The notes: generated from the sequence alone by a model not told the origin. A stretch of 24,000 bases of DNA from Pusillimonas sp. ANT_WB101 (GCF_008369125.1 NZ_VOAY01000001.1:1475545-1499544), one strand, 5' to 3'. Numbered from the stretch's first letter, positions 3,345-21,265 are shown. Program-made: numbers and translations.

Positions 3345-3354
3345 GCTGTGCCGC

Positions 3355-3424
3355 CCTTGCCTTGCCTTGCCTTGCCTTGCCTTGCCTTGCCTTGCCTTGC
3401 CTTGCCTTGCCTTGCCTTGCCTTG
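3355..3424. repeat. Perfect pentanucleotide microsatellite (CCTTG)x14
   Basis: Counted directly: 70 bp with 14 uninterrupted CCTTG units. It starts 10 bp after the epimerase stop codon (3342-3344). Confidence 0.98.
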
Positions 3425-5746: not shown

Positions 5747-5751
5747 AAGCC

Positions 5752-6837
5752 CTATCCCTCTTCAGCGTCATCATCAGGCGCGTTCGCCACTGCCTTTTTG
5801 CGGCGACCCCAACACCAGCGTTTGACGTCAGGCATCGCCCGCAGAACATTCAGCAACGAACTGGCCAGTGTCAAAAACCCCGTCAACAACACCAAGGCTA
5901 TAACCAGTGTGCTTTGATGTTTAACTTTGACCCACCAACTGGCCTGGAAACTGTATTTGCCCCCGCCATAACGCTCGATATCCACGCCCTCTGCGGGTGC
6001 AAACATTACAACATCCATGGTTTTGTACGCGCTGATATCAGGCTGCGCCGTGGTAAAGCGCACAAATCCCTTTGGCAACACAAGCGCACCATTTTTATCC
6101 CTGACACCGGCTAATACAACCTGGTCTCCAAGCATGAGCGTAGACTCCTCGGCCAAGGTTCTGCCTGCCAGCGCATCTTCAGATGCCGCAAAAACAGCCA
6201 ACTGCCCACCTTGCAGCATTTTATTGACGCTCCACGCCACATCATGTCCTACCTTTGTATGCCCTGCAAATGGTAATACGGTCGTTGAGACTTGCCGCAC
6301 TTCAGAGCGGGGTCGCCAGCTGACATTGACCTGTGAAGCCAACGGGCGTCGGACTGAATCGCTTTCATCAGTACTAACAAACCCAAGCGGTCCGCTATCA
6401 CGTCGTAAAGCCATGTACACCACGCCGGAAGCTTGAGTGGATATTTTGACGTTTATCGGGTTTCCAACGTCAGCAGTTAAATCCAACAGCTGTTTGTTTG
6501 CCGTATCAGGCCATTTCAGCGCTTGCCAAGCCTGGCTGCCACAGGCATTTTCATGTGTCTCTGGGCCCTCTACCGCTTTTTGTCGACCAGGTAGTCGCTC
6601 ACAGACAAGTGCCTGCCCAATGTCCCATTGGGTGCGGCCTACCAGTTTAATGTCAATAATCTCAGTCTGCGCAGTCAGGCTTAGCTGCCAGGAGGCATGT
6701 GCTCGCAAAATATTAAACAGCGCAATTACGACAACCAGTAACAAACCCAAGAACAAAAACACCTGAATCTTGGCCATAACCCAAGACGTCCTGTTTGCGC
6801 CGGCCTTATCCGCAGGTAAAACCGGCTCATCCATCAT
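5752..6837 (-). CDS. Bitopic/two-TM inner-membrane protein with large periplasmic domain, unknown function
   Basis: 361-aa ORF. N-terminal TM segment IQVFLFLGLLLVVVIALFNIL and C-terminal TM segment STLVIALVLLTGFLTLASSLLNVL, followed by a basic then acidic tail. The start ATG overlaps the upstream stop codon (ATGA at 6834-6837). Confidence 0.6.
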   Translation of the reverse strand: MMDEPVLPADKAGANRTSWVMAKIQVFLFLGLLLVVVIALFNILRAHASWQLSLTAQTEIIDIKLVGRTQWDIGQALVCERLPGRQKAVEGPETHENACGSQAWQALKWPDTANKQLLDLTADVGNPINVKISTQASGVVYMALRRDSGPLGFVSTDESDSVRRPLASQVNVSWRPRSEVRQVSTTVLPFAGHTKVGHDVAWSVNKMLQGGQLAVFAASEDALAGRTLAEESTLMLGDQVVLAGVRDKNGALVLPKGFVRFTTAQPDISAYKTMDVVMFAPAEGVDIERYGGGKYSFQASWWVKVKHQSTLVIALVLLTGFLTLASSLLNVLRAMPDVKRWCWGRRKKAVANAPDDDAEEG

Positions 6838-7580
6838 GGGGTGCCGCCATAAAGAACAGTTACAGAAGCCTTGGGCAATTCACGTCCGTAAATTTCGCGC
6901 TCTATGGTGACTTCAGCCGCGCCTTTTAAAGCAGCCGGCACGTCAACATTGCAGACGTAATCAAAGCTAGTGCGTCGCCCTTCAACGGGTACACAATCGA
7001 CGGCATTCTGATCGGAAAATGATGCATACACATCGGTGGCATTGAACGAATTAATGTACAAACGCAGTTGATGCTGTTCAGCAGAATCAGAACGATGCAC
7101 CACATAGGTATTGCCAGTGGGCGCATCACACGACCCGTTGGCAGCCTGGACGGCGACTTCTAAATTTGCGTATTTAGCGAGAAAAGGCAGTTGTAGAGAT
7201 TTTTTATACGGTAGTAAAACAATATCACCAGGCTGCGTATCTGGCGGGAACACATACTGATTACTGGCCATGTATACGCCATCTCGCGTCAGAACGCTCA
7301 GACAGACTTCAGACGCGGCAGAATTCGCTTCGCTTATGATGGCTAGACTGCCCAGCGCCTTGCCATCTATCACGCTGTTATCAGAAACACCAACGATTAC
7401 TGCGCCGCTCACCACAACATCCTGACTTATGGTTTCGTTAAAAACCCCTTTAAGTGTAGCCATTTTTGGCGGAGCCGCGATTGCCACACTGCTGGCAGCC
7501 GATGCAACGGCAAGCAACACCCGCGCAAGCACATGCCACCGCATACTTGGACCTGGTTCAGGCAGAAAGAGCTTCGGCAT
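6834..7580 (-). CDS. Secreted beta-rich hypothetical protein (4 Cys)
   Basis: 248-aa ORF. AAGGAG SD sits 6 nt upstream of ATG 7580. Signal peptide ...MRWHVLARVLLAVASAASSVAIAAP. No family recognised. Confidence 0.6.
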   Translation of the reverse strand: MPKLFLPEPGPSMRWHVLARVLLAVASAASSVAIAAPPKMATLKGVFNETISQDVVVSGAVIVGVSDNSVIDGKALGSLAIISEANSAASEVCLSVLTRDGVYMASNQYVFPPDTQPGDIVLLPYKKSLQLPFLAKYANLEVAVQAANGSCDAPTGNTYVVHRSDSAEQHQLRLYINSFNATDVYASFSDQNAVDCVPVEGRRTSFDYVCNVDVPAALKGAAEVTIEREIYGRELPKASVTVLYGGTP

Positions 7581-7596
7581 GCTTGCTCCTTACAGC

Positions 7597-7620
7597 AATG
7601 CAGGGCAAGTACCCTGCATT
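7597..7620 (-). other. Perfect 9-bp intercistronic stem-loop (AATGCAGGG-N6-CCCTGCATT)
   Basis: The two arms are exact reverse complements (7597-7605 and 7612-7620). It lies between the stop of the 117-aa gene (7650) and the SD/ATG of the next gene (7580). No U-tract follows it. Confidence 0.45.
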
Positions 7621-7649
7621 TGCTCGAGGTTTACGTGCTTTGTGTCAGA

Positions 7650-8003
7650 CTATTTACGCCAATACTCGTTAGCGGCGGCAATGGTCTGGAAATGCGTAGC
7701 CACAACATGAGAGACGGCGATCAGGCTGTTGGCATCATGAGCATAACTCGGGCGTAGTGCTTTGCGAACAGCTGGGTCAGTTTGGGTGGTTGCCACACCC
7801 TTTTGCGACAACTTTACCGCAAGGGCGAAGCCTGCTTCAGGTGTTTCTGTAATAAGCGTGGCCAAGCCTGCTTTTTGCATTTCAGGCTTGTCTTGGGCAG
7901 AGGCAATACTGATATAGCCTATGGCCAAGGTCACTGCCAACAACGACGTAAAGAGAAATCGCTTTGGCATCCATGTACATCGCCGATATACGGTCGTATT
8001 CAT
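7650..8003 (-). CDS. Small secreted hypothetical protein
   Basis: 117-aa ORF. Hydrophobic signal segment FLFTSLLAVTLAIGYISIASA-QD. The start is either ATG 8003 (GGGGG about 9 nt upstream) or ATG 7970. Likely the first gene of the four-gene operon. Confidence 0.55.
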   Translation of the reverse strand: MNTTVYRRCTWMPKRFLFTSLLAVTLAIGYISIASAQDKPEMQKAGLATLITETPEAGFALAVKLSQKGVATTQTDPAVRKALRPSYAHDANSLIAVSHVVATHFQTIAAANEYWRK

Positions 8004-8220
8004 TTTGTCATCCCCCTAAAAAGTACTGTTTATTGCACAGAATTTTATGGCGTCTTGAAAAAGGCCACGGCGTAAAAAGCAAACTTCATCAACCCCATGC
8101 TAGCGGGAGGTGCTCCACACCGTCAACAGGGGTATTAGGGCGTACCAGTTTCGCGAAAATGCCCACCTAGCCGCGATTGATCTCGCTGTGCTGAAGTAGT
8201 CAGCACCACCATGACTGGTT

Positions 8221-11200
8221 CTACTCTGCGGTAGTGACCGCTACGGACGCAGCGTGCGTTGACACGGCATCGTCAGCCGCCCCACCAATCAATGGCAATA
8301 AGCGGGACAATACGTTTACCTGACTCATTTGGCTTACTGTGGCCACATCGGTACAAAACAAACTCTCGTTACCTACGACTACTGCCAGCGCCTGGGCACG
8401 CGAAATGGCAACATTGATGCGGTGTATATCAAAGAGAAAATCAATGCCGCGCGGCGACTCTGACGCATCGCTGGTACACAGGCTAAAAAAGACGACAGGT
8501 GCTTCTTGCCCCTGAAACTTGTCGACACTACCTACACGGGCCTGCGGCCCAAGCGCTTGCTGTAGTTTATTAACCTGGTGGTTATAAGGTGCGACAAAAA
8601 GCATGTCATCCCATGTAATGGGCCGCGTGCTGCCGTCCTTGGCAATAAACTGTCGCTGCAGACACTGCGCAGCAAGCTTGGCAATAACTTCAACCTCTTC
8701 ATCGCTGGCCTGCGTGTTTCCCTGATGTGCCATGGGCACAAAGACCACACCCGCGCTCTTGTCTAGATTACCTTCATAGCCTTCTGGCACAATAACTTGC
8801 TGTCGGTCGTTATTGGCGTCAGCCTTTAACTGGCCCTGGTAAATGGCGTGGCTAATATAGTGGTTAACGGCAGAATGCATACGAAACGTCGTATCAAGAA
8901 ACACGCCCATGTGCTCGGGAATAATCGGTGAATCATGCAGCAAATAATCGAGTATCGACAAACCACTGTCTGCCGGGTGTGAACCCTGCGACGGTTGCCC
9001 CAACTGCATTTGATCGCCCATTAACACAAGGTTTTTTGTGGCCCGGCTCATGCCCAACAGGTTGGCCACCGATACCTGCCCGGCCTCATCGATAAACAGA
9101 TAATCGAGCTGGTCCACCATCTCGTCGCGGCAAAAACCCCAGGCTGTGGTTCCAATGACGCAGCCGGGTTCCACGCATGATGCGATGGCTTCGTTCTTGG
9201 TCACTACAATGCCATTGCCCGTGACCTCAGGCCCGGTGTCTTTGGTGCAATAACACTGCACGGCAATCGCTTCCGTACGACAGTACTCGGCGACACCCAC
9301 CAACAGGTTGTTGATTGCCTTGTGGCTATTGCTGCTAATACCGATACGCTTACCTTGCTTTACCAGGTGAGCAATAATGTGTTTACCTGTGTAGGTTTTA
9401 CCCGACCCCGGTGGGCCTTGCAGGGTAAGGTAGCTGCCGTCCAGGCGCTCAACGGCGCTAATCACCTGGGCCAATCGTTCGCCAGGCTCAGACGCCGCGA
9501 CTATCGGGCCGCCATCATGCAACGAGATACGCGGCGGATCACGCCGTAAAAAAGCAAGAATGGCGGCGTCGCCCAAAACACCCTCCTCATAGCGCTTGAC
9601 CATATCGTCAATTGCCTTCTGGATGGCTCCGGGGTTCACGTACTCATCGGGTATCAGCGAGATCAGGTCACCCGGATCATTGGCAGACTGCACCACACAC
9701 AAGCCTTCTTTCAGGTTGGACATGTCCGCCAGGAACGTGACCTTGCGCAACGGCTCTTCCAATAGATACATGGACGACTGACGTGGCGTCTTGAATTCTT
9801 GATTGGGGTTGAAGCGGTATTCGTAGGCCAGATTTCTGGCTCTGGTAGTGGGCTTGAACGCTTCTCGCCCAGTACGGCGGCAGTTGGCAAGACAATCAAT
9901 ATCGTCTTCAAGCTCGTCATGACTCAAGCCCAGGCGATCAAACAAGCGCCAAAAAGTGGGCTTGCTTTCACGACGATGAAACTCAAGCATCCACGCCAGG
10001 TTCTCGGTAATACGCGCCTGATCTTCAGGTTCTGTCTCGGCTCGCGCTAATAAACGGTCACGGCGTTGGGTGCGTTCCGTGATTTCGTCGCTGGTTGGTG
10101 GTTCTATCAGCTCGAGCTGGCCGCTGTAAACAAGGCCATGAACGTGCTGCTGCTCACGCAACCAGATGGTAAGTTCTTGCGTTGAGTTGCAGTCATCAAT
10201 GTTGTAGTCGCGAATGTCTTTCAAGATGGCCGACGTTTGCCAGGTATTGCCTTCTTGCCCTTGCTGGTGCAGGTTGCGCCACTGCTCGTAAACAACGACT
10301 GAGTCTCCGCCGCTACCCACCGCTGTGTCGCGTTTGCCGCGATATAAGTGCTCAATATTCTTGATCGAATACTTGGGTTCACCAACGCGAAGGCCGCCCT
10401 TCACGATTTTGTACAAATCTATAAATACATTGTTGCGCAACAGCTGATCAACCTCGTGCTCACCAATGCCGTAACGCCCCATCAACCGCCGGCACGCGGC
10501 GATCTCATAGTTGGCGTAGTGGTAAATGTGCATGGTCGGGTCACGTAGCCAGCGCTCATACACCCAGTGGATAAAATCACTGAATGCCTGTTTTTCTTGC
10601 TCGCGGTCATGTGCCCAGAAATCCTTGAACTGGCGTTGACCGGCGTCATCCAGGTAGGTGCAGCCCCATAAATACTCAAGCCCGCCCTCATCCAGCGGAA
10701 ACCCTTCAATATCGAAAAACACATCCAGATCAGAATGCGGGGGCAACAGCACAAGCCCTGCTTCAGGTTGTTCAGGGTCTGGCGGCAGCACTTCAAACAA
10801 CGGCTTTTCTTGGCCTTGGCTGGCTAACTGAATAGCCGCCTGCGCCTTGAGTTTTGCCATGGTTTCGCTGCTGACACCGCGCACATGCTCAGCCTTTGCG
10901 TCAATGAGTTGCCGGCATGTAGAAATACCTGCCCGGTTTAGTTTTTTGACCTGAGAGCGCGAAATATTGGCTACAAGTGAAAGGTGGTCTTTATCTTGCA
11001 GTAACTGCGCGGCGTATTCAGACCATCGGCCATGGCTTTTTGAATCAGCCGGGTCAGGCATGGCTGTGGAATCAAAAGCTTCTTGCTCCGCCAGAAAGCG
11101 GGCCTTTAGGGCCAGGTAATAGTAGAAGTAGTTTTCGGTCTTCAGGCGCATGCATTCTTGATTACCCAGAGCAACCACAATGTGGTCGGCACGCCGCCCT

Positions 11201-11706
11201 TGCAAGGCCTGGAGCATTTCTACATAACAGCAAAGCTGAACTACAAAATACGGCTTAACCGAGGACGCCAGCTTGGTGTCCCACACTTCGTAATGGTAAT
11301 CGCCTAACGTGCTGGCGCCAGCCACCTTAACCAGAAAATCGGCATGGCCTCTAAACGGCGGCAACTGCAATACAGCCTGATAGATAACATCAGCGCCAGA
11401 CTGCATGGCTTCATGGGTTGCCTGCAGTTTTACAGCGATATTTTTGTTGGCACCGTCGCCCACACTACCTATATCAACAACCCGGAGGCCTTGGGCCTGA
11501 AACTGGCCCAACAGCCCACTTTCATGAACCAGCCCTTTTTCAGCCAGCATGGTATTCAGGGCATCATCCTCATCCCGCTGTGGTGCATCTTGCGGACACT
11601 CCAGTGCCCATCGCGTCATCCACGAGGCGAATGGGCTAGCCATGAAGGTGGTCAAATCGCTTGGGGAGAAAACGAGGTCTTGCTGGTTTCTATACATATA
11701 TGGCAC
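8221..11706 (-). CDS. Multidomain nuclease-helicase: N-terminal PD-(D/E)XK RecB/Cas4-like nuclease (TM0106-type), RNase-H-like module, and C-terminal SF1 Upf1/Dna2-like helicase (AAA_11/AAA_12-type)
   Basis: 1161-aa ORF. Nuclease motifs GHADFLV, YEVWDTKLA and QLCCYVEML (QxxxY). DVFFDIEGFP ... HIYHYANYE is an RNase-H-like exonuclease-fold signature. Walker A LQGPPGSGKTY is encoded at about 9394-9417 and Walker B LFIDEAGQ at 9076-9099. Later helicase motifs are GDQMQLGQP, TTFRMH, VDKFQGQEAPVVFFSL and NVAISRAQ. The start is GTG 11706 or ATG 11697. Confidence 0.85.
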   Translation of the reverse strand: MPYMYRNQQDLVFSPSDLTTFMASPFASWMTRWALECPQDAPQRDEDDALNTMLAEKGLVHESGLLGQFQAQGLRVVDIGSVGDGANKNIAVKLQATHEAMQSGADVIYQAVLQLPPFRGHADFLVKVAGASTLGDYHYEVWDTKLASSVKPYFVVQLCCYVEMLQALQGRRADHIVVALGNQECMRLKTENYFYYYLALKARFLAEQEAFDSTAMPDPADSKSHGRWSEYAAQLLQDKDHLSLVANISRSQVKKLNRAGISTCRQLIDAKAEHVRGVSSETMAKLKAQAAIQLASQGQEKPLFEVLPPDPEQPEAGLVLLPPHSDLDVFFDIEGFPLDEGGLEYLWGCTYLDDAGQRQFKDFWAHDREQEKQAFSDFIHWVYERWLRDPTMHIYHYANYEIAACRRLMGRYGIGEHEVDQLLRNNVFIDLYKIVKGGLRVGEPKYSIKNIEHLYRGKRDTAVGSGGDSVVVYEQWRNLHQQGQEGNTWQTSAILKDIRDYNIDDCNSTQELTIWLREQQHVHGLVYSGQLELIEPPTSDEITERTQRRDRLLARAETEPEDQARITENLAWMLEFHRRESKPTFWRLFDRLGLSHDELEDDIDCLANCRRTGREAFKPTTRARNLAYEYRFNPNQEFKTPRQSSMYLLEEPLRKVTFLADMSNLKEGLCVVQSANDPGDLISLIPDEYVNPGAIQKAIDDMVKRYEEGVLGDAAILAFLRRDPPRISLHDGGPIVAASEPGERLAQVISAVERLDGSYLTLQGPPGSGKTYTGKHIIAHLVKQGKRIGISSNSHKAINNLLVGVAEYCRTEAIAVQCYCTKDTGPEVTGNGIVVTKNEAIASCVEPGCVIGTTAWGFCRDEMVDQLDYLFIDEAGQVSVANLLGMSRATKNLVLMGDQMQLGQPSQGSHPADSGLSILDYLLHDSPIIPEHMGVFLDTTFRMHSAVNHYISHAIYQGQLKADANNDRQQVIVPEGYEGNLDKSAGVVFVPMAHQGNTQASDEEVEVIAKLAAQCLQRQFIAKDGSTRPITWDDMLFVAPYNHQVNKLQQALGPQARVGSVDKFQGQEAPVVFFSLCTSDASESPRGIDFLFDIHRINVAISRAQALAVVVGNESLFCTDVATVSQMSQVNVLSRLLPLIGGAADDAVSTHAASVAVTTAE

Positions 11707-11859
11707 ATACCGCTACGCGTATGTGGAAGACAGTCAGGAGCGAATGCCTTACCGACACTTCAATTGGGAGGCATGCCCGAGAAAAATGAGCGTCACCTTG
11801 TCACTTTGGTCGGTGATACAGACGAAAACACCAACGATGGGAGCGATCAATACCTCACT

Positions 11860-12171
11860 CTAGCGCGGGCAATCAAAATTATAGGTGCCTACGGGCTTGC
11901 CATTTTCGGCGAACTTTAGCTCAATTTGGCACTTGTCTTCGTTGCTGACACTTATCGAAAAGCGCGACAAGGCCGTTGCCTGGTTTGCCACCACCTGCAC
12001 CCCACCACTTTGGCTTACTTGCGACGAGCCACCGCGACCTTCTTTTTTGGCATTTAGCGCGTACTCAAGCTTGCCACTTTTGTCGCTTTTAACGTAGGGA
12101 ATAACCACGCTTGGATGCGTGTCAGGTACGGTTTCGAGCCAAACCTGTAGATTGAAGTCAGCCACCATCAT
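11860..12171 (-). CDS. CsgC/CsgH-like small beta-protein lacking a signal peptide (putative curli amyloid-inhibitor homologue)
   Basis: AGGAG SD (12178-12182) sits 6 nt before ATG 12171. An in-frame TAA at 12190-12192 blocks any N-terminal extension. By-eye ungapped alignment to E. coli CsgC (from memory): VIPYV vs IIPEV, KEG vs REG, and ANQATALSRFSISVSNEDKCQIEL vs ANQPIALTKLSLNISPDDRVKIVV, all with identical spacings. It occupies the csgC position downstream of csgA. Confidence that this is a real CDS is higher (about 0.75) than confidence in the family call. Confidence 0.5.
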   Translation of the reverse strand: MMVADFNLQVWLETVPDTHPSVVIPYVKSDKSGKLEYALNAKKEGRGGSSQVSQSGGVQVVANQATALSRFSISVSNEDKCQIELKFAENGKPVGTYNFDCPR

Positions 12172-12296
12172 TATGTGCTCCTGAAAACATTACTTTAGTT
12201 TATTTCAATTAGGGACGGTGCTCTATTGGAACGTGTTCCGTGCATGATGAACGCGATGCCGTATGGGGCGGGTGAAGATCGCCCCCCCGTCCTGTG

Positions 12297-12337
12297 AAAA
12301 AAGAAAAAAAGGGAGTGCGCCACTGCGGCACACTCCC
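12297..12337 (-). terminator. Rho-independent terminator of curli locus 1
   Basis: Minus-strand RNA reads GGGAGUGUGCC-GCAGU-GGCGCACUCCC (11-bp stem with one G-U pair), followed by UUUUUUUCUUUUUU. It lies 30 nt after the csgA-1 stop codon. Confidence 0.85.
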
Positions 12338-12367
12338 TCTCCTACTACATCATTACATAAGAATAGC

Positions 12368-13540
12368 TTACATCTGAATGGCTGTAGCGACGTTGCCATT
12401 ACCACTTTGAGTGACGGTGGCTACGCCTGAAACAGTAGTACTCGACTGGGAGACATAAGCTGCATTCAAGTTGCCCGACTGCATTACATTAGCTGTCTGA
12501 ATGATGCCTGCGCCATTACCCGACTGATTAACGACAGCCAGCTCAAGAAAGCCAGACTGTGTCACATTAGCGATATGGCCTTTACCACCCTGTGTGATGA
12601 ACGCTGCCTCAAGGCTACCGGACTGGATCACATTGGCTTGAAGTACAGCACCACTTTGATCGACGTGCGCGGTGTTCAAAGCGCCCGACTGTGTCACATT
12701 AGCGTCATTGTAGCTGCCGACCTGCGAGACATTAGCTGTATTGCCAAAGCCTGATTGGATGACAGTAGCCGTCTCCATCGACCCGCGCTGGTAGATATCG
12801 GCTGTATGGCGCGCGCCTGACTGATCTATAGTGGCGGTTTTAGGAAGGTTAGAACCTACCTGAGTGATCGAAGAAGAGTCGTGATCGCCGGTATCCGTAA
12901 TGGAAGCGGTGTTATAGCCTTGCGACGGGTTAAATTGTGCGCTCTGATCAATGATGGCATTGCCATTTGTGGCGCCATTTTGTTCAATCGTTGCCGTTTG
13001 ATAAGAGCCGACTTGGGTGATGGAGGCATTGTTGTCGCTACCGTAACCACCGTAAGAGTTGGCATTGATCGTGGCGACTAGCTTAGTACCGTCCTGCTGG
13101 CTGATGGTACCTGTATTTGAATTACCGTTTTGATAAATCAAACCATAAACGCCAGGATCGCTGCCAGCAGGTGCGCCGACATTGCTCTGGGTTATGCTCC
13201 CTGTGTTGCGGCTACCCCAATTGGTGATATGCCCCTGTGCACCATTGCCATTATCGACTTGGGTGATTGAGCTTGTGTTGCGGTTGGCACCAGGAAGCTC
13301 ATTTATGACAGCGTTCGCGAAGCTAACGTTACCGTCTTGACCGATTGTGCCGGTGTTGCGGTTGCCCTGTTGGTTGATGGTCGCTGTGTTATTTCCCAAG
13401 TGCGAATTTTCCTGCTGGGCGGTAGCAGTATTCAGCGATCCTGGCTGGTCGATGACGATGCTGGAGCTGGCGGCCATTGATGTGCCGGCACCAAAGGCGA
13501 GGGTCAGGCCCAGCGCCAGAGCTGATAAATTGGTTTTCAT
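12368..13540 (-). CDS. csgA: Giant curlin-repeat fibre subunit (CsgA-like), locus 1
   Basis: The start MKTNLSALALGLTLAFGAGTSMA (ATG 13540) is a signal peptide; the ORF-track start at 13597 is likely too long. About 29-30 tandem strand units of about 11 residues carry the curlin signature (A-x-[VI]-x-Q-x-G-x-x-N/x), e.g. ATIDQSGARHT ADIYQRGSMET ATVIQSGFGNT ANVSQVGSYND ANVTQSGALNT. Confidence 0.85.
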   Translation of the reverse strand: MKTNLSALALGLTLAFGAGTSMAASSSIVIDQPGSLNTATAQQENSHLGNNTATINQQGNRNTGTIGQDGNVSFANAVINELPGANRNTSSITQVDNGNGAQGHITNWGSRNTGSITQSNVGAPAGSDPGVYGLIYQNGNSNTGTISQQDGTKLVATINANSYGGYGSDNNASITQVGSYQTATIEQNGATNGNAIIDQSAQFNPSQGYNTASITDTGDHDSSSITQVGSNLPKTATIDQSGARHTADIYQRGSMETATVIQSGFGNTANVSQVGSYNDANVTQSGALNTAHVDQSGAVLQANVIQSGSLEAAFITQGGKGHIANVTQSGFLELAVVNQSGNGAGIIQTANVMQSGNLNAAYVSQSSTTVSGVATVTQSGNGNVATAIQM

Positions 13541-13606
13541 AATGTTATCTCTCGCTATAAGTGTAGGCCGAAAATAAAGAAGCAACCCAGTGGCCATTAG
13601 GCTAGG

Positions 13607-14140
13607 TTACGGTTGAACAACTGTGAAAGAGCCACCAAAACCGATCTGCGTAACAGCGATGGTTTGGTTTCCCAACTGCGTAATATCGATTTGATTGTGG
13701 CCGCCAATTTGTGCGGCGGCGGCGGTGTTTCCGCCGTTGTTCTGATTAATATTGATTTGGTTTTGGAAACCCATCTGGCCGGTGGCCGCCAGATTTCCAT
13801 CCCCATTTTGAGTAATGCGTGCCGAGTTATCGGCGCCGAACAATTGCACGACTGCTGCCATGTTGTCAGAACCATTCTGCAGAATCTGTGCTTCGCTATT
13901 GACGCTCGCAGATGTTTGCAGAATCCGTGCATGCTGGTTGGCACCGCTGCCCTGGGTAATTAACGCCTTGTTCACCTGGCCACTTTGGGATATGGTTGCG
14001 GTCGAACTGTTGGTGCCGGAAAGCTCGCTGGGTGCCAGATCCATCATCGAACCCAGATCAGAGGCATAGGCGCCCGACGCGAGCACGCAAACACTTGCCA
14101 CAAGCGCTAAACGAATACGTTGAATACGTTTGTTATTCAT
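13607..14140 (-). CDS. csgB: Curlin-repeat protein, CsgB-like (nucleator by position), locus 1
   Basis: 177 aa with signal peptide ...VCVLASGAYA. About 11 curlin strand units (ATISQSGQVNK ALITQGSGANQH ARILQ... IDITQLGNQTI AVTQIG). Its ATG overlaps the csgG stop codon (ATGA 14137-14140). It precedes the csgA-like gene, as in csgBA. Confidence 0.8.
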   Translation of the reverse strand: MNNKRIQRIRLALVASVCVLASGAYASDLGSMMDLAPSELSGTNSSTATISQSGQVNKALITQGSGANQHARILQTSASVNSEAQILQNGSDNMAAVVQLFGADNSARITQNGDGNLAATGQMGFQNQININQNNGGNTAAAAQIGGHNQIDITQLGNQTIAVTQIGFGGSFTVVQP

Positions 14141-15108
14141 GGATTACTCCAGGAAAGAGATTTGTAGTCAGCAGCAGCGAAATCAGTTCCGTTGGCTGCC
14201 CCGCTTACGGTCTTCGACGGAACTTCCTCTACATAGGTGCTCTCTTTATTCAAATAATGCTGAATAACAGGGTTGTCCCAGTCTTGCGGGTTCTTCAGTA
14301 CCCACAAATTGTCTTTAACGCCACCCACGATTAAGTGCGCAACTGCCGCTTCAACCGCTTCTTGCACGCACAGCTGCGCGGGCTCGTTGCTGGTAATGCC
14401 GCCTTCAATTTGAAGCAAGTCGTTGAAGTTCACGAACTTGAAGACGCTAGGATGTATCTCGTAGGAATAGATGGTTTTGGTAGTGGAAACGCTTTGCAAA
14501 ACCTCGCCGGTATTGACGTCAACGCTGCGCAAATTAATGCCCACCTGATCCACCCGGTACTGCGCCGATGCACCTACGCCCAAGAACTGCGCACCCAGGC
14601 CCCCCGTGCGAACGTTGCTGTCGTACGAAACAATTCCACCATTAAGCACAATGGAAGCTGGCATAAGGTTAGGAACCCTGACCTTAGACTGCCCATTGCC
14701 GGAGTCCTCGTCATCGATGGCCCGTATCACACGTCTTTCGGTAAGCAGCGACTGCAGATCTTCGCGCTCAACCGGAATAAACCAGCCTGAATCCTTAAGC
14801 GCCTTGATCAGCATAGAGCCAGCGCCTTGCGTGACTGCCGTGGAAAAGGCACTTTCTGGTGAGGGCTTGTACTGCCCGGTCTGATCACGAAAGCCATATA
14901 CAGCCACAACCACCTTGCCTTTGGGCGGAGGAAACTCCAGCAGATCGCGGGTCGCTTTGGTGGGCGGCGTTAAGTGCGCCTCGTTGTGGGTGCCGGAGGG
15001 CGGTACATAAGCGCACGCTCCCAGTAAAACACTTGCCAGTGTGCAGGCAATAGCTACTTTCGTGCGACGGTGCCACGCTGGTGCTTGGGGTGAGTTGTGT
15101 AATTTCAT
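14137..15108 (-). CDS. csgG: Curli secretion channel lipoprotein CsgG, locus 1
   Basis: Lipobox LLGAC. Unmistakable CsgG core: KGKVVVAVYGFRDQTGQYKPSPESAFSTAVTQGAGSMLIKALKDSGWFIPVEREDLQSLLTERRVIRA... SYDSNVRTGG. It has a C-terminal tail of about 35 aa beyond the conserved core. Confidence 0.95.
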   Translation of the reverse strand: MKLHNSPQAPAWHRRTKVAIACTLASVLLGACAYVPPSGTHNEAHLTPPTKATRDLLEFPPPKGKVVVAVYGFRDQTGQYKPSPESAFSTAVTQGAGSMLIKALKDSGWFIPVEREDLQSLLTERRVIRAIDDEDSGNGQSKVRVPNLMPASIVLNGGIVSYDSNVRTGGLGAQFLGVGASAQYRVDQVGINLRSVDVNTGEVLQSVSTTKTIYSYEIHPSVFKFVNFNDLLQIEGGITSNEPAQLCVQEAVEAAVAHLIVGGVKDNLWVLKNPQDWDNPVIQHYLNKESTYVEEVPSKTVSGAANGTDFAAADYKSLSWSNP

Positions 15109-15578
15109 TATTGACCAAACGTGGAAGAGGAAACCTGAAAGGAGGTCGACTGACCCGTCGTTTTATCGGTCGTCGTAATGGTCAGCAACCCGCTACCCGC
15201 GTCTGCCACAACAATCGTGAAGCTTTCCGTATTCACCGTGCCAGGGATCAGATTGCCACTGTTGTCAAATAACTGTGAAGTCGCTGCGGCCGAAATACGG
15301 CTAAGCATGGATTGCTCCAGCGTCTGATTGAATCGATCTAAAGCCGTTTGTTGGCCCAGCTCCGACTTACCCAGATCTCGCGAAGGCGGCTCGTGCTTGT
15401 TTTGTGCCTGAGCGCTGCCCAGAAGGTAATTACCGTTAAGCGGGTTACCGCCAAAACTAGGGTTCACCGGCGTGTAAATGAGCTGCCCGGCACCGGCTGC
15501 CGAAGCAAGCGTAATCGCTGCGGTGGCCGTCAGGACGCGGACTAATCCAGCGCCATGTTTAATGATTAATATGTTCAC
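15108..15578 (-). CDS. csgF: Curli assembly component CsgF, locus 1
   Basis: LIYTPVNPSFGGNPLNGNYLLGSAQAQNKHEPP matches the CsgF N-terminal pore-binding motif (E. coli: [24 protein letters not shown]). The GTG start lies immediately after the csgE TAA. Its stop overlaps the csgG start (TAATG). Confidence 0.9.
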   Translation of the reverse strand: MNILIIKHGAGLVRVLTATAAITLASAAGAGQLIYTPVNPSFGGNPLNGNYLLGSAQAQNKHEPPSRDLGKSELGQQTALDRFNQTLEQSMLSRISAAATSQLFDNSGNLIPGTVNTESFTIVVADAGSGLLTITTTDKTTGQSTSFQVSSSTFGQ

Positions 15579-16037
15579 TTACATTTCCTCTGGACCCAGG
15601 TCAGGGCTTTTGAATAGCCTGAGCTGTATGTTTAGATTGACGATATTTTTATAGGCGATGGCAACCGCCTCTTTGGCGGCTTCTTTCACGCCAGACCGCG
15701 CTGGCGCAAGAAACGTATGGAAAACACGTTGATCCCTGTAGCTCACCCACATCTCACTACCGTACTGAGGGGTGGCTCGTTCATAAATCGTGATCGTGAA
15801 CTTAGAGTCGGGATACAAAGTTTGCCAACGTTCGGAAAAGCTCTTGTAGAAATCCCACCCCAGAACCGTCATGGTTCGGTTAATAATGATCCCGCCCAGC
15901 GGATCTTTATTGATTTCGCCAGAATCACGGACTACGCCGTTATCCCCAGGCCCGAGCTTAGCTGGTGCCTTCGCGAGTGCGCTCTGACATATCAGGACAG
16001 ACACGATCAAGACGAGCGGTATTCCAAATCGCTGCAC
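15579..16037 (-). CDS. csgE: Curli secretion specificity factor CsgE, locus 1
   Basis: GGIIINRTMTVLGWDFYKSFSERWQ ... WVSYRDQRVFHTFLAP resembles the E. coli CsgE core (HDFYRAFSDKWE ... VIFQTFLFP). I place the start at GTG 16037 (GGAG 8 nt upstream), which gives a 22-aa signal peptide collinear with the paralogue. The ORF-track maximum start is 16046. Confidence 0.85.
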   Translation of the reverse strand: MQRFGIPLVLIVSVLICQSALAKAPAKLGPGDNGVVRDSGEINKDPLGGIIINRTMTVLGWDFYKSFSERWQTLYPDSKFTITIYERATPQYGSEMWVSYRDQRVFHTFLAPARSGVKEAAKEAVAIAYKNIVNLNIQLRLFKSPDLGPEEM

Positions 16038-16046
16038 CTTAACCAC

Positions 16047-16624
16047 TCCATGACCAACGTCGCCAACAAAGGCGTCGGGTAATGTGTTCCGACATGTATT
16101 CCCCTAATTTTTATGCGCTAACTTGCTAATTCGTGTTTGATGCTTAATGTAAGCAATTGAACGCAAATTTAAGATAGGCTTTAAGTCGGCTATTAATAGA
16201 GAGCGATATGTGTTAATGAAAAATGCCTGGTTCATACTGAATAAAAACACTCGACAGACGAGGCTACAGCCGTAGGAAATAGTCTGATCGTCTCTACTGA
16301 AAAAACATATAACTGCTAAAACCGCCTATTTATGGCATAAAACACACAAATATAGGCCTTTCACCTTTGTTTTTTGCTTATGATGTCGTTGAAGAAAAGC
16401 CCTCTTTTCTGTCATCAACTAGTAACGCTTCGACTCAGAATGATCGTATTTGTCTGGCCAATATCGCTTATCCGCCATATGGCCTAGGCCATTAATAAAA
16501 ATTAACGAGATTTAACCTTTACTACGTATTTTGATAAAAACACTGTAAGCACGGCGTAACGCATTCAATCTGTAATTAGGTCTGATGATCGTCAATTCCT
16601 GTCTTTCTTCTGATCGACAAGAGG
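16047..16624 (-). promoter_or_regulatory. Long AT-rich non-coding region upstream of curli locus 1 (promoter/regulatory region)
   Basis: About 580 bp with no ORF of 60 aa or more, visibly AT-rich compared with its flanks. It contains CTTGCTAAT (16122-16130), which is shared with the locus-2 upstream region, and a perfect 14-bp palindrome ATGGCCTAGGCCAT (16479-16492). No promoter could be pinned down confidently. Confidence 0.4.
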
Positions 16625-16653
16625 AAAAAAGGGTGTACCGTTGCGATACACCC
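16625..16653 (-). terminator. Rho-independent terminator of curli locus 2
   Basis: Minus-strand RNA reads GGGUGUAUCG-CAA-CGGUACACCC (10-bp stem with one G-U pair), followed by UUUUUU. It lies 34 nt after the csgA-2 stop codon. It has the same architecture as the locus-1 terminator but a different stem sequence. Confidence 0.8.
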
Positions 16654-16687
16654 TCGTTTTCCTGTTACGCCGTTACAGCGGTACAGA

Positions 16688-17848
16688 CTACATCTGCGTA
16701 GCTACAGCCAGGTTGCCAAAGCCGCTTTGATTAATAGTCGCTATGCCTGAAGCTGCAGTGCTGGTCTGGGTTACAAGCGCTGTATTTAAAATACCCGACT
16801 GTGTCACAGTAGCTGTTTGAGACAACCCTGACTGGTTCACGCGCGCAAGCTCAAGTACACCCGACTGCGTCACAGTGGCTGTTTGGGGTTGCATATACGA
16901 GTTGCTCTGCGAGATAAACGCCGCCTCGCCAGTACCCGTTTGCGTCACAATGGCTTTATCGCCACCGGAATCAGCCTGGTCAACTTGTGCCAGGTTGAAC
17001 GCGCCAGACTGGGTCACAATGGCTTTTTGGTAGGTACCCGATAATTGGCTGACGTCAGCCCTGTTACCGAAGCCTGTTTGCAGAACGGTCGCTTGATCCG
17101 AATACCCGTCTTGGCTGATGTTAGCGGTATGCCCTGCTCCTGACTGATCCACAGTGGCCGCGTTGTAGTAGCCGGAACTGGACCCACCCACCTGAGAGAT
17201 GTAAGACGAATCGTGGTTACCCGAATCAGTAATGGAAGCGGTGTCATAGCCAAACAAGGGGCTATAACCTCTATTCTGATCAATGACAGCACTGCCATGC
17301 GTGGCGCCGTTCTGCTCAACCGTGGCGTTCTGATTAACACCAACCTGCGTGATGGCAGCATTGTTATTGCTGCCATGACCGCCATATGTGTTCAGGTTTA
17401 TGGTCGCGCTTTGGTTGCTGCCGTTGCTCTGATCAATGGCGCCAATGTTAGCGTTGCCGTTTTGATAAACCACGCCATAAGCCCCATCAACATTAACCTG
17501 AGCAATGCTTGACGTATTGTGGCTACCCCAGTTTTGGGTGTTTCCGATTGCACCACTGTTACCGGTTTGCGTAATTGTGCTGTTGTTGCCGTTAGCACCC
17601 GTGTTTTCAGTGATGGTGGCCGTCGCGTAGCTGGCGTTGCCGTTCTGGCTGATTTTGCCCGTATTGTGGTCGCCCAGTTGGTTGACGGTTGCGGTGTTAA
17701 TGCCAAGGCCCGAGTTTTGTTGCACGGCTTCGGCAGAGTTTACCGATCCGGGCTGGTTGATGGTGATGGTTGCACTGGCGGCCATCGCAGTGCTGGCGCC
17801 AAAAGCAAGGGCCAGGCCCAATGTTACTGCTGACAAATTAATTCTCAT
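16688..17848 (-). CDS. csgA: Giant curlin-repeat fibre subunit (CsgA-like), locus 2
   Basis: The start MRINLSAVTLGLALAFGASTAMA is at ATG 17848; the ORF-track start at 17893 is a TTG. It is collinear with the locus-1 protein but is clearly the most diverged pair. It has the same 11-residue curlin strand periodicity and the same C-terminal ...ATQM/AIQM ending. Confidence 0.85.
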   Translation of the reverse strand: MRINLSAVTLGLALAFGASTAMAASATITINQPGSVNSAEAVQQNSGLGINTATVNQLGDHNTGKISQNGNASYATATITENTGANGNNSTITQTGNSGAIGNTQNWGSHNTSSIAQVNVDGAYGVVYQNGNANIGAIDQSNGSNQSATINLNTYGGHGSNNNAAITQVGVNQNATVEQNGATHGSAVIDQNRGYSPLFGYDTASITDSGNHDSSYISQVGGSSSGYYNAATVDQSGAGHTANISQDGYSDQATVLQTGFGNRADVSQLSGTYQKAIVTQSGAFNLAQVDQADSGGDKAIVTQTGTGEAAFISQSNSYMQPQTATVTQSGVLELARVNQSGLSQTATVTQSGILNTALVTQTSTAASGIATINQSGFGNLAVATQM

Positions 17849-17914
17849 GATAATACCTATCGCTACAAGTGAAGGCCGAACGTTATAAGGCAACCTAGTG
17901 GCCAGCAGCCTAGG

Positions 17915-18448
17915 CTACGGTTGAACAACTTTGAAGGAACCACCAAAACCGATTTGCGTAACAGCGATGCTTTGGTTTCCCAATTGCGTAATATCGATAT
18001 GATTCTGGGCGCCTATTTGGGCGGCAGCGGCGCTGTTTCCGCCGTTGTTCTGGTTAATGCTGATTTGGTTTCCAGAACCCATCTGGCCGGCGACCGCCAG
18101 ATTGCCATCCCCATTTTGCGTAAGGTTCAGCGCGTTATTGCTGCCTGACAATTGCACAGCCACCGCGTTGTTGCCTGAACCACTTTGCAGGATCTGGGCA
18201 TCGCTGTTGGCAGTTCCTGACGCTTGCAAAATGCGCGCGTGTTGCTGGGCGCCAGTGGCCTGGGTGATCGACGCCCTGCCCAACTGGCCAGCCTGGGTTA
18301 TGTTTGCGGTCGAGTTGGTACCACCTGACAATTCGCTGGGTGCCATATCGCTCATCAAGCCCAAGTCGGAAGCATAGGCACCAGCCCCAAACATACAAGT
18401 GCCCGCCAGAATCGCAACGCAAACACGCTGCACATGTTTATTACTCAT
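17915..18448 (-). CDS. csgB: Curlin-repeat protein, CsgB-like, locus 2
   Basis: 177 aa, the same length as its locus-1 paralogue. Signal peptide ...GTCMFGAGAYA. Curlin strand units. Its ATG overlaps the csgG-2 stop codon (TAATG 18446-18450). Confidence 0.8.
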   Translation of the reverse strand: MSNKHVQRVCVAILAGTCMFGAGAYASDLGLMSDMAPSELSGGTNSTANITQAGQLGRASITQATGAQQHARILQASGTANSDAQILQSGSGNNAVAVQLSGSNNALNLTQNGDGNLAVAGQMGSGNQISINQNNGGNSAAAAQIGAQNHIDITQLGNQSIAVTQIGFGGSFKVVQP

Positions 18449-19422
18449 TAAAGACTCCCTGATGGGGGTGGTGAATCAGCGGTTGTGGCGGTGGCATCAG
18501 CCTTCTTTGCTGTCGCATCAGCGGCCTTGGGCGAGATGGGCTCCACATAGTTACTTTCTTTCTCGAGATAGCGCTGGATCACAGGGTTATTCCAATCCTG
18601 GGCGTTCTTTAGCACCCACAAATGATCTTTCACCCCACCCACTATCAAGTGCGCAACAGCCGCTTCAACCGCTTCCTGCACACACAGCTGCGCGGGTTCG
18701 TTGCTGGTAATGCCGCCTTCGGCCTGCAGCAAATCATTGAAGTTCACAAACTTGAAGACGCTAGGATGTATCTCATACGAATAGATCGTCTTGGTGGTGG
18801 AGACGCTTTGCAAAACTTCGCCCGTGTTGACATCAACGCTGCGCAAGTTGATGCCGACCTGGTCCACCCTGTATTGGGCCGTTGCACCAACCCCCAGAAA
18901 CTGGGCACCCAGGCCTCCGGTTCGCACATTACTGTCGTACGAAACAATGCCACCATTGAGCACAATAGAAGCCGGCATTAGGCTAAGAACCTTCACTTTG
19001 GACTGCCCCGCCGTCGCGTCCTCGTCATCAATTGCACGTATTACGCGTCTTTCGGTAAGTAGCGACTGCAGATCTTCACGCTCTACCGGAATAAACCAAC
19101 CCGAATCCTTGAGCGCCTTAATCAGCATGGAACCGGCACCTTGCGTCACAGCGGTTGAAAAAGCACTCTCTGGTGACGGCTTGTACTGCCCTGTTTCATC
19201 ACGAAAGCCATAAACAGCCACTACCACCTTGCCCTTAGGCGGAGGAAATTGCAGCAGATCGCGCGTGGCTTTAGTGGGCGGCGTCAGGTGCGCTTCGTTG
19301 TGCGTGCCAGCTGGCGGTACAAATGCACAGGCCCCTAATAGCAGGCTCGCCAGTGAACAGGCAACAGCCACTTTCGTAAGATGGAGCCACCGTGGTTGCT
19401 GCGTAAGATAGCGTGATTTCAT
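18448..19422 (-). CDS. csgG: Curli secretion channel lipoprotein CsgG, locus 2
   Basis: Lipobox LLGAC. The core is nearly identical in protein sequence to locus-1 CsgG. The C-terminal tail is different: Ala/Thr/Pro-rich (PKAADATAKKADATATTADSPPPSGSL). Confidence 0.95.
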   Translation of the reverse strand: MKSRYLTQQPRWLHLTKVAVACSLASLLLGACAFVPPAGTHNEAHLTPPTKATRDLLQFPPPKGKVVVAVYGFRDETGQYKPSPESAFSTAVTQGAGSMLIKALKDSGWFIPVEREDLQSLLTERRVIRAIDDEDATAGQSKVKVLSLMPASIVLNGGIVSYDSNVRTGGLGAQFLGVGATAQYRVDQVGINLRSVDVNTGEVLQSVSTTKTIYSYEIHPSVFKFVNFNDLLQAEGGITSNEPAQLCVQEAVEAAVAHLIVGGVKDHLWVLKNAQDWNNPVIQRYLEKESNYVEPISPKAADATAKKADATATTADSPPPSGSL

Positions 19423-19892
19423 TATTGACCAAACGTAGAAGAGGAGACCTGAAAGGAGGTCGTCTGACCAGTCGTTTTGTCGGTCGTGGTAATCGTTAAC
19501 AACCCGCTGCCCGCGTCGGCCACGACAATGGAAAAGTCCTGCGTGTTCACCGTGCCGGGGATGAGGTTGCCGCTGTTATCAAACAACTGAGAGGTCGCCG
19601 CGGCCGAAATCCTACTAAGCATGGATTGCTCCAGCGTCTGGTTGAAGCGATCCAGCGGCGTCTGCTGGCCCAGGTCCGATGCACCAAGATCCGGCGAAGA
19701 CGGCTCGTGCTTGTTTTGCGCTTGGGCGCTACTGAGAAGGTAATTGCCATTAAGCGGGTTGCCCCCAAAATTTGGGTTGACCGGCGTATAGGTGAGCGGA
19801 GTCGCTCCTGCTGCTGAAGCCAGCGTCACTGCCACTGCGGCCGCCAAGGCGCGGGCTAATCCAGCACCTCGTTTATCCATATAGTTGTTCAT
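19422..19892 (-). CDS. csgF: Curli assembly component CsgF, locus 2
   Basis: LTYTPVNPNFGGNPLNGNYLLSSAQAQNKHEPS. ATG 19892 lies directly after the csgE-2 TAA. Its stop overlaps the csgG-2 start (TAATG). Confidence 0.9.
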   Translation of the reverse strand: MNNYMDKRGAGLARALAAAVAVTLASAAGATPLTYTPVNPNFGGNPLNGNYLLSSAQAQNKHEPSSPDLGASDLGQQTPLDRFNQTLEQSMLSRISAAATSQLFDNSGNLIPGTVNTQDFSIVVADAGSGLLTITTTDKTTGQTTSFQVSSSTFGQ

Positions 19893-20378
19893 TTACATTT
19901 CCTCCGGACCCAGATCGGGGCTTTTGACTAGCCTGCGCTGTATGTTGAGATCAATGATGTTTTTGTAAGCGATTTCGACCGCCTGACTGCTCGCTTGCTT
20001 CACGCCAGACCGTGCAGGCGCGAGAAATGTATGAAACACGCGCTCGTCCTTGTAGCTCACCCAAATCTCGCTACCGAATTGGGGGGTCGCTCTTTCGTAC
20101 ACGGTTGTTGTGAAGGTCGAATCGGGATGCAAAGTCTGCCAAAGCCCAGAAAAGCTTTTGTAAAAATCCCATCCCAGAACCGTCATGGTTCGGTTGATGA
20201 TGATGCCGCCTAGCGGATCGTTATCAATCTGCCCCGAATCAAGGCGCGTGCCTGCGCTCGAAAGCGTGGTCTTGGCGGGCTTCATTCCATGGGAGATCGT
20301 GGAGGATGTCTTTGCCAGTGCATTCTGGCCAGCCAAGGCAAACACGATCACCGCAAGCTGTATAGAGCATCGCAGCAC
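19893..20378 (-). CDS. csgE: Curli secretion specificity factor CsgE, locus 2
   Basis: The core GGIIINRTMTVLGWDFYKSFSGLWQ ... is shared with locus 1. I favour GTG 20378 as the start (AGGA 9 nt upstream), which gives the signal peptide MLRCSIQLAVIVFALAGQNALA, collinear with locus 1. The ORF-track maximum start is GTG 20444. Confidence 0.8.
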   Translation of the reverse strand: MLRCSIQLAVIVFALAGQNALAKTSSTISHGMKPAKTTLSSAGTRLDSGQIDNDPLGGIIINRTMTVLGWDFYKSFSGLWQTLHPDSTFTTTVYERATPQFGSEIWVSYKDERVFHTFLAPARSGVKQASSQAVEIAYKNIIDLNIQRRLVKSPDLGPEEM

Positions 20379-20883
20379 TTTCCCGTTTCCTCGGCCATGC
20401 TTGCCTGGAAAAACGCCGAAAGACACATTGAAAAAATAAAGCACTTTGATCGTTTCTGTATTTAATTAAGAATTGCTAATTTACACCTATTACAAAACGT
20501 CAAATAGAAAAGATTAGTGAATTTTTACATTTGAAAGATTTTTTGGTCGAGCCATATCCTAAACCCAGCAAATAAGGCCCTCGGTTTCTGTGCGAGTTGG
20601 CAGGCTGAAGCAATGACATCGACACCCTGGTCCTGAGAGGCCTCATGCTGCTAACAGCAGCTAAATTGAAGGCAAAACATATCGATACGCAGCGTTATTA
20701 CTGTTATTTTTTAGCTTGCTAATCGCGAGTTTTTGTCTAATCTTGTGCCCTAGGGCATCTTTAAATAAACAAACTCAGGTGTGAATTAGCGTGGAATTTT
20801 AAGCTTTACAGACGCATCGGCTAGATGTACTAGGCTGTTAACCATATGGCATTTACTTACGATTAGTGCTAGATAATGAGAAT

Positions 20884-20952
20884 GTGCCCTGTGCCCTGTG
20901 CCCTGTGCTTTGGTGCTTTGGTGCTTTGGTGCTTTGGTGCTTTGGTGCTTTG
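20884..20952. repeat. Compound microsatellite (GTGCCCT)x3 followed directly by (GTGCTTTG)x6
   Basis: Counted directly: heptamers span 20884-20904 and octamers span 20905-20952, all perfect. It is intergenic, about 500 bp upstream of csgE-2 and about 310 bp downstream of the ABC ATPase stop codon. Confidence 0.97.
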
Positions 20953-21265
20953 CGCTTCGAGCCTTGAGCATTTGACACATGTGCCGTCTGCAACGAGCAG
21001 CACTCGTCGTCACGCATTTACAATTCTTCGCAGACAGATACACAGCCAAAACAACATTTGCTGCTGTCCAATGAACACAAAGACAAAGATCTGATTACGA
21101 CTACGCCAACAATAGGTAACCTAAGCGCCTAGGTGCACCGAACTCAAGCTTGACTGCCCATCTCGGCTGCTACACAGAAGCATGAGGCTACCCAAGACGA
21201 CGCGTCCAATGCGTCGCGACTAATCTTTGCGGGCTGCCAAGGTTAGATGCGCTCTGTGTAGTGCC

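Follow-up and report, generated by a model that had tools for sequence, protein, structure and literature searches.

The stretch of DNA analysed here, a 24,000-nucleotide window of Pusillimonas sp. ANT_WB101 (Betaproteobacteria, Burkholderiales, Alcaligenaceae; GCF_008369125.1, NZ_VOAY01000001.1:1475545-1499544), carries a doubled curli (type VIII secretion) locus that spans positions 11860-21265. Two csgE-csgF-csgG-csgB-csgA modules lie head to tail, with every csg gene on the minus strand, and a single csgC/csgH-like gene follows them. We regard the locus as a known system present as a lineage-specific pair of paralogues, probably generated by an old duplication within the lineage; both copies have been kept, and the pair probably produces two fibres under separate regulation. 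In E. coli, CsgG is the pore, CsgE its periplasmic partner, CsgF the surface coupling factor, CsgB the nucleator, and CsgA the major subunit. By homology, the curlins of each module would leave the cell through a CsgG lipoprotein pore, with CsgE acting in the periplasm and CsgF coupling at the surface, and the short curlin would nucleate the polymerisation of a major curlin of ~390 residues and ~20 strands. The expected products would be two sequence-distinct amyloid fibres, separately regulated and served by nearly equivalent export machines. The unusual part of the locus is the doubling, together with the module-by-module variation found among close relatives.

In the 5'-to-3' order of the minus strand, the upstream module (U2) precedes the downstream module (U1). 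U2 begins with csgE2 (19893-20378; Pfam CsgE, 2.9e-28), whose longest open reading frame (ORF) extends to 20444; the likely start is the internal GTG at 20378, which follows a GAGGA and is backed by both the sequence and a 161-residue gene call in a related genome. This gene abuts csgF2 (19422-19892; CsgF, 9.1e-32) at a TAA-ATG junction, and csgF2 overlaps csgG2 (18448-19422; CsgG, 1.7e-68; P0002 / WP_149396447.1), which encodes the lipoprotein outer-membrane channel, through a TAATG. A second TAATG joins csgG2 to a short curlin gene of 177 residues (17915-18448; Curlin_rpt, 8.4e-15), called csgB2 by position and size only. The module ends with the long curlin gene csgA2 (16688-17848; Curlin_rpt, 2.8e-24), which encodes 386 residues from its MRINL start and ~20 Q-x-G half-repeats. 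The second module, U1, repeats this order: csgE1 (15579-16046; CsgE, 5.8e-30) meets csgF1 (15108-15578; CsgF, 1.4e-32) at TAA-GTG, csgF1 overlaps csgG1 (14137-15108; CsgG, 6.2e-69; 100% identical to P0001 / WP_149396443.1) through TAATG, and csgG1 overlaps the 177-residue short curlin gene csgB1 (13607-14140; Curlin_rpt, 5.9e-15) through ATGA. The long curlin gene csgA1 (12368-13540; Curlin_rpt, 1.1e-30) encodes 390 residues from an MKTNL start and ~21 half-repeats. The starts of both csgA genes, like that of csgE2, are internal to the longest ORFs, and 66 nucleotides separate csgB from csgA in both modules.

Each module appears self-contained, consisting of an AT-rich upstream region, a packed gene string, and its own terminator. 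The presumed regulatory region of U2 (20379..21265, minus strand) measures 887 nucleotides at 44.8% GC, and that of U1 (16047..16628, minus strand) measures 582 nucleotides and is very AT-rich, at 38.5% GC. A strong, predicted intrinsic terminator stands just after each csgA, with a T-tract and an 18-bp stem in U1 (12343..12305, minus strand) and a 12-bp stem in U2 (16655..16629, minus strand). The abutting or overlapping coding regions suggest co-transcription within a module, and the strong terminators and unrelated AT-rich upstream regions point to two separately controlled transcripts. An earlier reading of the stretch from its sequence alone (the sequence-only reading) had proposed two complete head-to-tail curli loci, each a co-directional csgE-F-G-B-A set with its own hairpin and U-tract terminator. 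All ten genes and both terminators were recovered, with the junctions exactly as it gave them; its inventory overlooked the single csgC/csgH-like gene at 11860-12171.

Pfam CsgE, CsgF, CsgG, and Curlin_rpt match across all ten genes, above the curated cut-offs and nearly at full length, which bears out the earlier statement that every gene is intact. The CsgG matches (PF03783) cover 203 of the 210 profile positions, and an LLGAC lipobox is present in both copies; CsgE (PF10627) and CsgF (PF10614) match at full length in both modules, where their genes abut or overlap csgG. The curlin repeat (PF07012) was found in four of four curlins, in three to seven matched stretches each, and Q-x-G/S half-repeats number 20-21 per long curlin and 9-11 per short curlin; by eye, the curlin N-termini are hydrophobic and signal-peptide-like. 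Because the NCBIfam CsgG score of 275 bits falls below the enterobacterial equivalog cut-off of 505, CsgG1 and CsgG2 are homologues, not equivalogs. Short and long curlins alike score higher with the NCBIfam CsgB model than with the CsgA model, all of them below the cut-off; A and B curlins are reported to be distinguishable only in Gammaproteobacteria (Dueholm 2012, PMC3521004).

Three comparisons of the modules date the duplication and describe the constraint on its products. First, DNA homology between U1 and U2 runs from 12369-15930 against 16689-20244, at 74.1% identity over 3606 nucleotides, and is limited to coding sequence: the alignable part lies between the interior of csgE and the csgA stop codon, and this comparison found no alignment of the upstream regions, the CsgE signal peptides, or the terminators. 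A degraded csgC after U2 and a promoter sequence common to both modules were sought in the same alignment, and neither was found. Second, the synonymous divergence (dS) and the ratio of nonsynonymous to synonymous divergence (dN/dS), calculated by the Nei-Gojobori method (NG86), are 1.10 and 0.17 for csgE1/csgE2, 0.88 and 0.12 for csgF1/csgF2, 1.15 and 0.10 for csgG1/csgG2, 0.70 and 0.29 for csgB1/csgB2, and 1.32 and 0.21 for csgA1/csgA2. With dS at 0.70-1.32, all five genes are thus close to saturation at synonymous sites; the paralogue pairs have similar ages, and purifying selection acts on each of them. Third, the mature proteins are 88.9% (CsgF), 86.0% (CsgG), 74.6% (CsgE), 70.9% (CsgB), and 60.7% (CsgA) identical between modules. 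Within CsgG, the core (residues 32-290) reaches 93.4% identity, with proportions of nonsynonymous differences (pN) of 0.00-0.03 against proportions of synonymous differences (pS) of 0.4-0.7. Replacements cluster in one loop (codons ~136-147) and in the C-terminal tail, with pN near 0 elsewhere; the tails extend ~33 residues beyond the core and are mutually unrelated (3' ends 14137-14230 and 18448-18545).

These values agree with the graded divergence described in the sequence-only reading, in which CsgE and CsgB were intermediate and the CsgA-like subunits most diverged, and with its proposal of an old duplication whose copies are both under purifying selection. The pairwise alignment and dN/dS that it put forward as checks gave homology limited to coding sequence and, for each gene of either module, ratios well under 1. 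Its description of mature CsgG and CsgF as almost identical holds for the CsgG core and is too strong for CsgG as a whole and for CsgF. Recent gene conversion, another of its checks, was considered as a major factor and rejected: no recent tract was seen between U1 and U2, since sliding pS stays at 0.4-0.9 with a lone dip to 0.24-0.33 at the 3' end of csgB, and a four-way identity profile revealed no stretch in which the U1 and U2 of a single genome become alike. In a test for foreign composition, neither GC content nor GC at third codon positions (GC3) separated U1, U2, and the flanks.

Because the pore core and CsgF are the most constrained components, the fibre subunits the least, and the promoter regions unrelated, two sequence-distinct fibres are the most likely role of the pair, and their export through interchangeable pores is plausible on this pattern of identities. 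It is possible, though clearly less probable, that the modules are redundant or cooperative, being co-expressed so that mixed CsgG/CsgF machines build one composite fibre or simply add dosage. The high identities of the CsgG core and mature CsgF suit this explanation, and the CsgG loop that aligns with the E. coli constriction loop differs by one conservative Q/E exchange, as the N-terminal segment of CsgF does by two mismatches; a single csgC-like gene is common to both modules, and one close relative does without U2. It is also common for a genome to encode several CsgA homologues, for which a role in modulating fibre properties has been proposed (PMC3521004, PMC10192328). Extra curlin genes alone, however, would be enough for composite fibres, and here all five genes have been kept in both modules over a dS of ~1 at dN/dS of 0.1-0.3. 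Also against it are the completely different upstream regions and the identities of only 75%, 71%, and 61% for CsgE, CsgB, and CsgA.

The phylogenetic position of the modules places the duplication that we favour. The CsgG clade of the window holds only three other sequences, all metagenomic. In neighbour-joining trees of CsgE, CsgF, and CsgG, the modules U1 and U2 group with the cassettes L001 and L002 at 98-100% bootstrap support, and this clade is ~70% identical in amino-acid sequence to all other Alcaligenaceae. The duplication therefore arose within a narrow lineage, and would have followed the split from Castellaniella, Candidimonas, and the other sampled Alcaligenaceae and preceded the split from the lineage of GCA_034676265.1. 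L001, a 3.4-kb Logan contig (SRR24770527), is a fourth csgEFG cassette of the narrow clade, ~79-80% identical in nucleotides to both U1 and U2, and lies behind a DUF2058 gene instead of the ABC operon that adjoins the window's locus; related cassettes thus occupy different genomic contexts.

An independent genome retains the same arrangement. Contig JAUCCJ010000006.1 of GCA_034676265.1 (L083) carries the tandem pair between the same flanks, and its 11 genes are all intact. Over the export operon, the U2 upstream region, all of U2, and the U2 terminator, it is collinear with the window at 93.6% nucleotide identity. The flanking genes of the two genomes differ by a dS of 0.09-0.26, and the U2 orthologues by a dS of 0.15-0.29, with 95-98% amino-acid identity and dN/dS of 0.04-0.10; the conservation of U2 thus matches that of the flanks. 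The U1 orthologues differ by a dS of 0.62-0.89, with 62-89% amino-acid identity and dN/dS of 0.08-0.32, and the U1 upstream regions are barely alignable, in fact essentially unalignable. Identity returns to 98-100% about 30 nucleotides upstream of the csgC-like gene. The diverged block, at window positions ~12200-16650, thus has sharp edges, comprises exactly one module with its regulatory region and terminator, and is 3-7 times more diverged at synonymous sites than the flanks. We favour the explanation that recombination replaced the module of one lineage with a more distant allele.

A third relative lacks one module. L002/L003 (JAUCDD010000018.1) belongs to a nanopore metagenome-assembled genome (MAG) with frameshift noise and is 96-97% identical to L083 on both sides of the locus. 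It lacks L083 positions 8270-12796, which are exactly the U2 module. At the junction, the hairpin that follows the ABC gene runs directly into the 3' arm and T-tract of the U2 terminator; these positions are non-homologous, so the join is not a repeat collapse. L002 and L083 group together to the exclusion of the window, which makes a single deletion in L002 a more parsimonious account than a pair of insertions. The disruption of one copy in relatives, which the earlier reading had thought would count against it, was not encountered in either copy, but U2 has been wholly lost from L002. Taken alone, this one-module contig had suggested that U2 is a recent acquisition; the idea was dropped, as L083 shares the tandem state and L002 is a deletion derivative. 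The bin is labelled Melaminivora sp. (Comamonadaceae), which is probably wrong for this contig, given its 94-97% identity to the Pusillimonas window and L083 across the flanks.

A rival explanation is that the pair itself was assembled when a diverged allele was acquired from a related strain, for instance through homology-facilitated illegitimate recombination at the conserved ABC-transporter or csgC flank, so that the modules would be xenologues. We consider this unlikely. The sharp-edged divergence of the U1 block does indicate that cassette-scale exchange seems to occur here, U1 and U2 have unrelated upstream regions and terminators, L001 places a related csgEFG cassette in another context with a DUF2058 gene upstream, and L002 documents whole-module gain or loss by illegitimate joining. 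Yet U1 and U2 are mutually closest apart from the three metagenomic sequences of the same narrow clade, no donor-like sequence was found among 8000 candidates scored from a collection of 5.8 billion proteins, and GC and GC3 are indistinguishable from those of the flanks. The tandem state is moreover already present in two lineages, so the event would have to be old and the donor very close, which makes capture hard to tell from duplication.

On the favoured reading, that of an in-lineage duplication, the modules may nonetheless behave as cassettes at the population level, with U2 vertically inherited and cleanly deletable and U1 swapped by allelic replacement through recombination. O-antigen, capsule, flagellin, and pilin loci are replaceable surface-structure cassettes between conserved flanks. 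The window resembles them in pattern only, through a block at ~12200-16650 that is far more diverged than its flanks and through whole-module presence that varies; unlike them, it is represented by three genomes, with no donor alleles identified and no positive selection seen (dN/dS at most 0.32). Curli fibre type may thus vary at the strain level like other surface antigens, and such variation, should further genomes bear it out, would offer a new view of bacterial amyloid ecology. A more elaborate version, which we rate as improbable, envisages a modular fibre-type locus in which a conserved module is accompanied by a recombination-swapped one that gives each strain a private amyloid sequence, U2 is tuned by microsatellites, and a leaderless, possibly cytoplasmic chaperone of the CsgC/H type guards against both subunits. 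If this were true, the private amyloid could serve kin-specific templating or co-aggregation, or help the strain to evade phage or grazers.

The idea that the pair is an assembly artefact, or that one copy is a decaying pseudo-operon, can be dismissed with near certainty: tandem repeats can be mis-assembled in general, and the nanopore MAG shows one module, but the copies differ at 26% of nucleotides, the independent assembly GCA_034676265.1 from another sample has the same intact pair, a Logan contig from a separate run (SRR24770529) matches the U2 of that assembly from csgF to csgA at 100%, the junction in L002 lies at non-homologous positions, and all ten ORFs are full length against Pfam with dN/dS far below 1.

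Several points weigh against the reading of an old duplication that yields two separately regulated fibres. The comparative set consists of three related assemblies, of which two are MAGs, one of them a noisy nanopore bin. The divergence of U1 could instead reflect differential loss from an older array of at least three copies. The near-identical pores and CsgF proteins are equally compatible with mixed pores and with mixed or composite fibres. A scan for the sigma-70 consensus returned fewer matches than shuffled sequences, none of them convincing upstream of either csgE. Finally, the short curlin is identified as the probable nucleator by position and size only, the NCBIfam models giving no separation of A from B at this locus.

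The doubling stands out against the wider distribution of curli loci. A scan with a 21-sequence CsgG alignment, taking one genome per species, yielded 80 loci with 10-kb flanks, and our counts use the 79 that lie outside the window's own lineage. Exactly one csgG is present within 10 kb on either side in 79 of these 79 loci, and none has a second. In the survey of synteny that the sequence-only reading had suggested, the tandem pair is kept in L083, and none of the 79 other species loci is doubled within 10 kb. Co-directional csgE-csgF-csgG followed by curlin genes occurs in 67/79 loci, a detectable csgC-like gene lies downstream in 24/79, and the Alcaligenaceae loci (L004-L020 and L022) all have the window's gene order. 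A single co-directional csgEFGBA operon is therefore the normal layout in Alcaligenaceae and Burkholderiales. The limited literature searched contained no description of the full csgEFGBA set duplicated head to tail, which is not proof that none has been published. Additional curli operons have been reported, as have multiple CsgA-like genes in one genome, at first as many as six and later as many as 30 (Dueholm 2012, Sleutel 2023; PMC3521004, PMC10192328); multiplicity is shared with those genomes. A Castellaniella sp. MAG (SMAG_U2116) has two complete csgE-F-G-B-A-C loci on separate contigs (L010 and L014), of which L014 is phylogenetically divergent, and is either a second dual-curli example in Alcaligenaceae or a mixed bin.

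The regulatory contrast with E. coli is of less interest. As the earlier reading stated, no LuxR-type csgD is present: none of the 24 window ORFs scanned (23 of at least 100 residues and one cut by the window edge) contains a LuxR/GerE domain. The divergent operon pair of the enterobacterial type is absent as well, all csg genes being on one strand. According to Dueholm et al. 2012 (PMC3521004), Betaproteobacteria lack csgD, single-operon layouts exist, and only Enterobacteriales and Vibrionales have the divergent csgBAC/csgDEFG arrangement. The contrast that the sequence-only reading had singled out is accordingly what is expected for the clade, because 67/79 loci share the layout and the absence of csgD from the class is already published.

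Set beside the systems already characterised, the locus is closest to the single-operon loci of Betaproteobacteria and Alcaligenaceae (Castellaniella, Candidimonas, Parapusillimonas, and Eoetvoesiella, among others), which have the same co-directional order of csgE, csgF, csgG, short curlin, and long curlin, often with a csgC-like gene after it, and whose CsgG proteins are 57-70% identical to those of the window. Those loci hold one module, whereas the window holds the module with its upstream region and terminator twice and the csgC-like gene once. With E. coli and Salmonella curli the window shares homologous CsgE, CsgF, CsgG, curlin-repeat subunits, and a chaperone of the CsgC family, and the same secretion-and-nucleation mechanism is therefore presumed. 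It differs from them in having neither csgD nor a divergent operon pair, and all its scores are below the enterobacterial NCBIfam equivalog cut-offs. Its CsgG proteins have an extra C-terminal tail of ~33 residues, its CsgC-like protein has no signal peptide, and its major curlin comprises ~390 residues with ~20 half-repeats, in contrast to E. coli CsgA with five repeats in ~150 residues (PMC3521004; PMC10192328).

Curli are the reference system for functional amyloid, and the choice of clients by CsgE, templating by CsgB, and the specificity of cross-seeding have been studied almost entirely in E. coli. The present locus is a natural matched pair in one cell, in which the pores and CsgF are ~90% identical, CsgE and CsgB 71-75%, and CsgA 61%. 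The seat of specificity could thus be mapped with a small number of cross-complementation and cross-seeding experiments.

The csgC/csgH-like gene (11860-12171, minus strand; Pfam Tafi-CsgC, 9.5e-12) is present in single copy 3' of the U1 terminator, encodes 103 residues, and presumably serves both modules. Its product scores 45.3 bits with PF10610 against a cut-off of 25, and 49.8 bits with the NCBIfam CsgH subfamily against a cut-off of 35; the CsgC equivalog model gives 49.5 bits, below its cut-off of 75. A phmmer search matched it to E. coli CsgC 2XSK (E 2e-4), and the protein is 99% identical in amino-acid sequence in L083 (gene at 17310-17621). No N-terminal signal peptide was found on it: the protein begins MMVADFNLQVWLE, four residues before the position that aligns with the mature CsgC crystallised from E. 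coli. The in-frame space upstream of the gene amounts to just 2-6 codons in L083, L013, L020, and L022, and a leaderless N-terminus, M-x-x-A-D-x-N-L-Q-V-W-L-E, together with two conserved cysteines, recurs in more than 20 Burkholderiales orthologues (comparison of the CsgC-like genes of L004-L025). Betaproteobacteria have been reported to lack csgC (Dueholm 2012, PMC3521004).

The noncoding parts of the locus offer further candidates for regulation. No RNA family was detected in the window with Rfam at gathering thresholds, and so no known riboswitch or leader precedes either operon. The U2 upstream region is ~93% conserved in L083 outside its microsatellites. Two abutting perfect microsatellites, (CAAAGCAC)x6 and (AGGGCAC)x3, lie ~500 nucleotides upstream of csgE2 (20883-20952, minus strand); in the orthologous region of L083, which is ~93% identical elsewhere, each unit occurs only about once. 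Since repeat number differs between close relatives, the microsatellites are a candidate contingency or phase-variation element for U2. The csgB-csgA spacers (13541-13606 and 17849-17914) are conserved in four of four modules, U1 and U2 of both the window and L083, to a degree above that of the neighbouring coding sequence. Each contains a 9-bp hairpin that overlaps the csgB stop codon and has undergone G-U changes only, without compensatory covariation; the spacer could determine how much CsgB is made relative to CsgA, by attenuation or by mRNA processing.

The locus is bounded 5' of the U2 region by a MacAB-like export operon (an HlyD-family gene, an FtsX/MacB permease, and an ABC ATPase) that ends at 21266 and inside which the window opens. 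A large helicase gene (8221-11706) lies 3' of the csgC/csgH-like gene. In this part of the window (4577-11706, minus strand), a protein of 1161 residues combines an RNase_H_2-like domain with superfamily 1 (SF1) helicase domains, and its helicase part matches PADLOC MkoA at 9e-42; its gene is followed by one for an HTHP haem protein and then by three co-directional ORFs of 248, 361, and 389 residues that have no Pfam or PADLOC match. A further ORF (3348-3737, plus strand, 129 residues), located after an epimerase gene, likewise has no match in Pfam or PADLOC. At its very start stands a perfect pentanucleotide microsatellite, (CCTTG)x14.2 (3355-3425), which is a possible slipped-strand switch.

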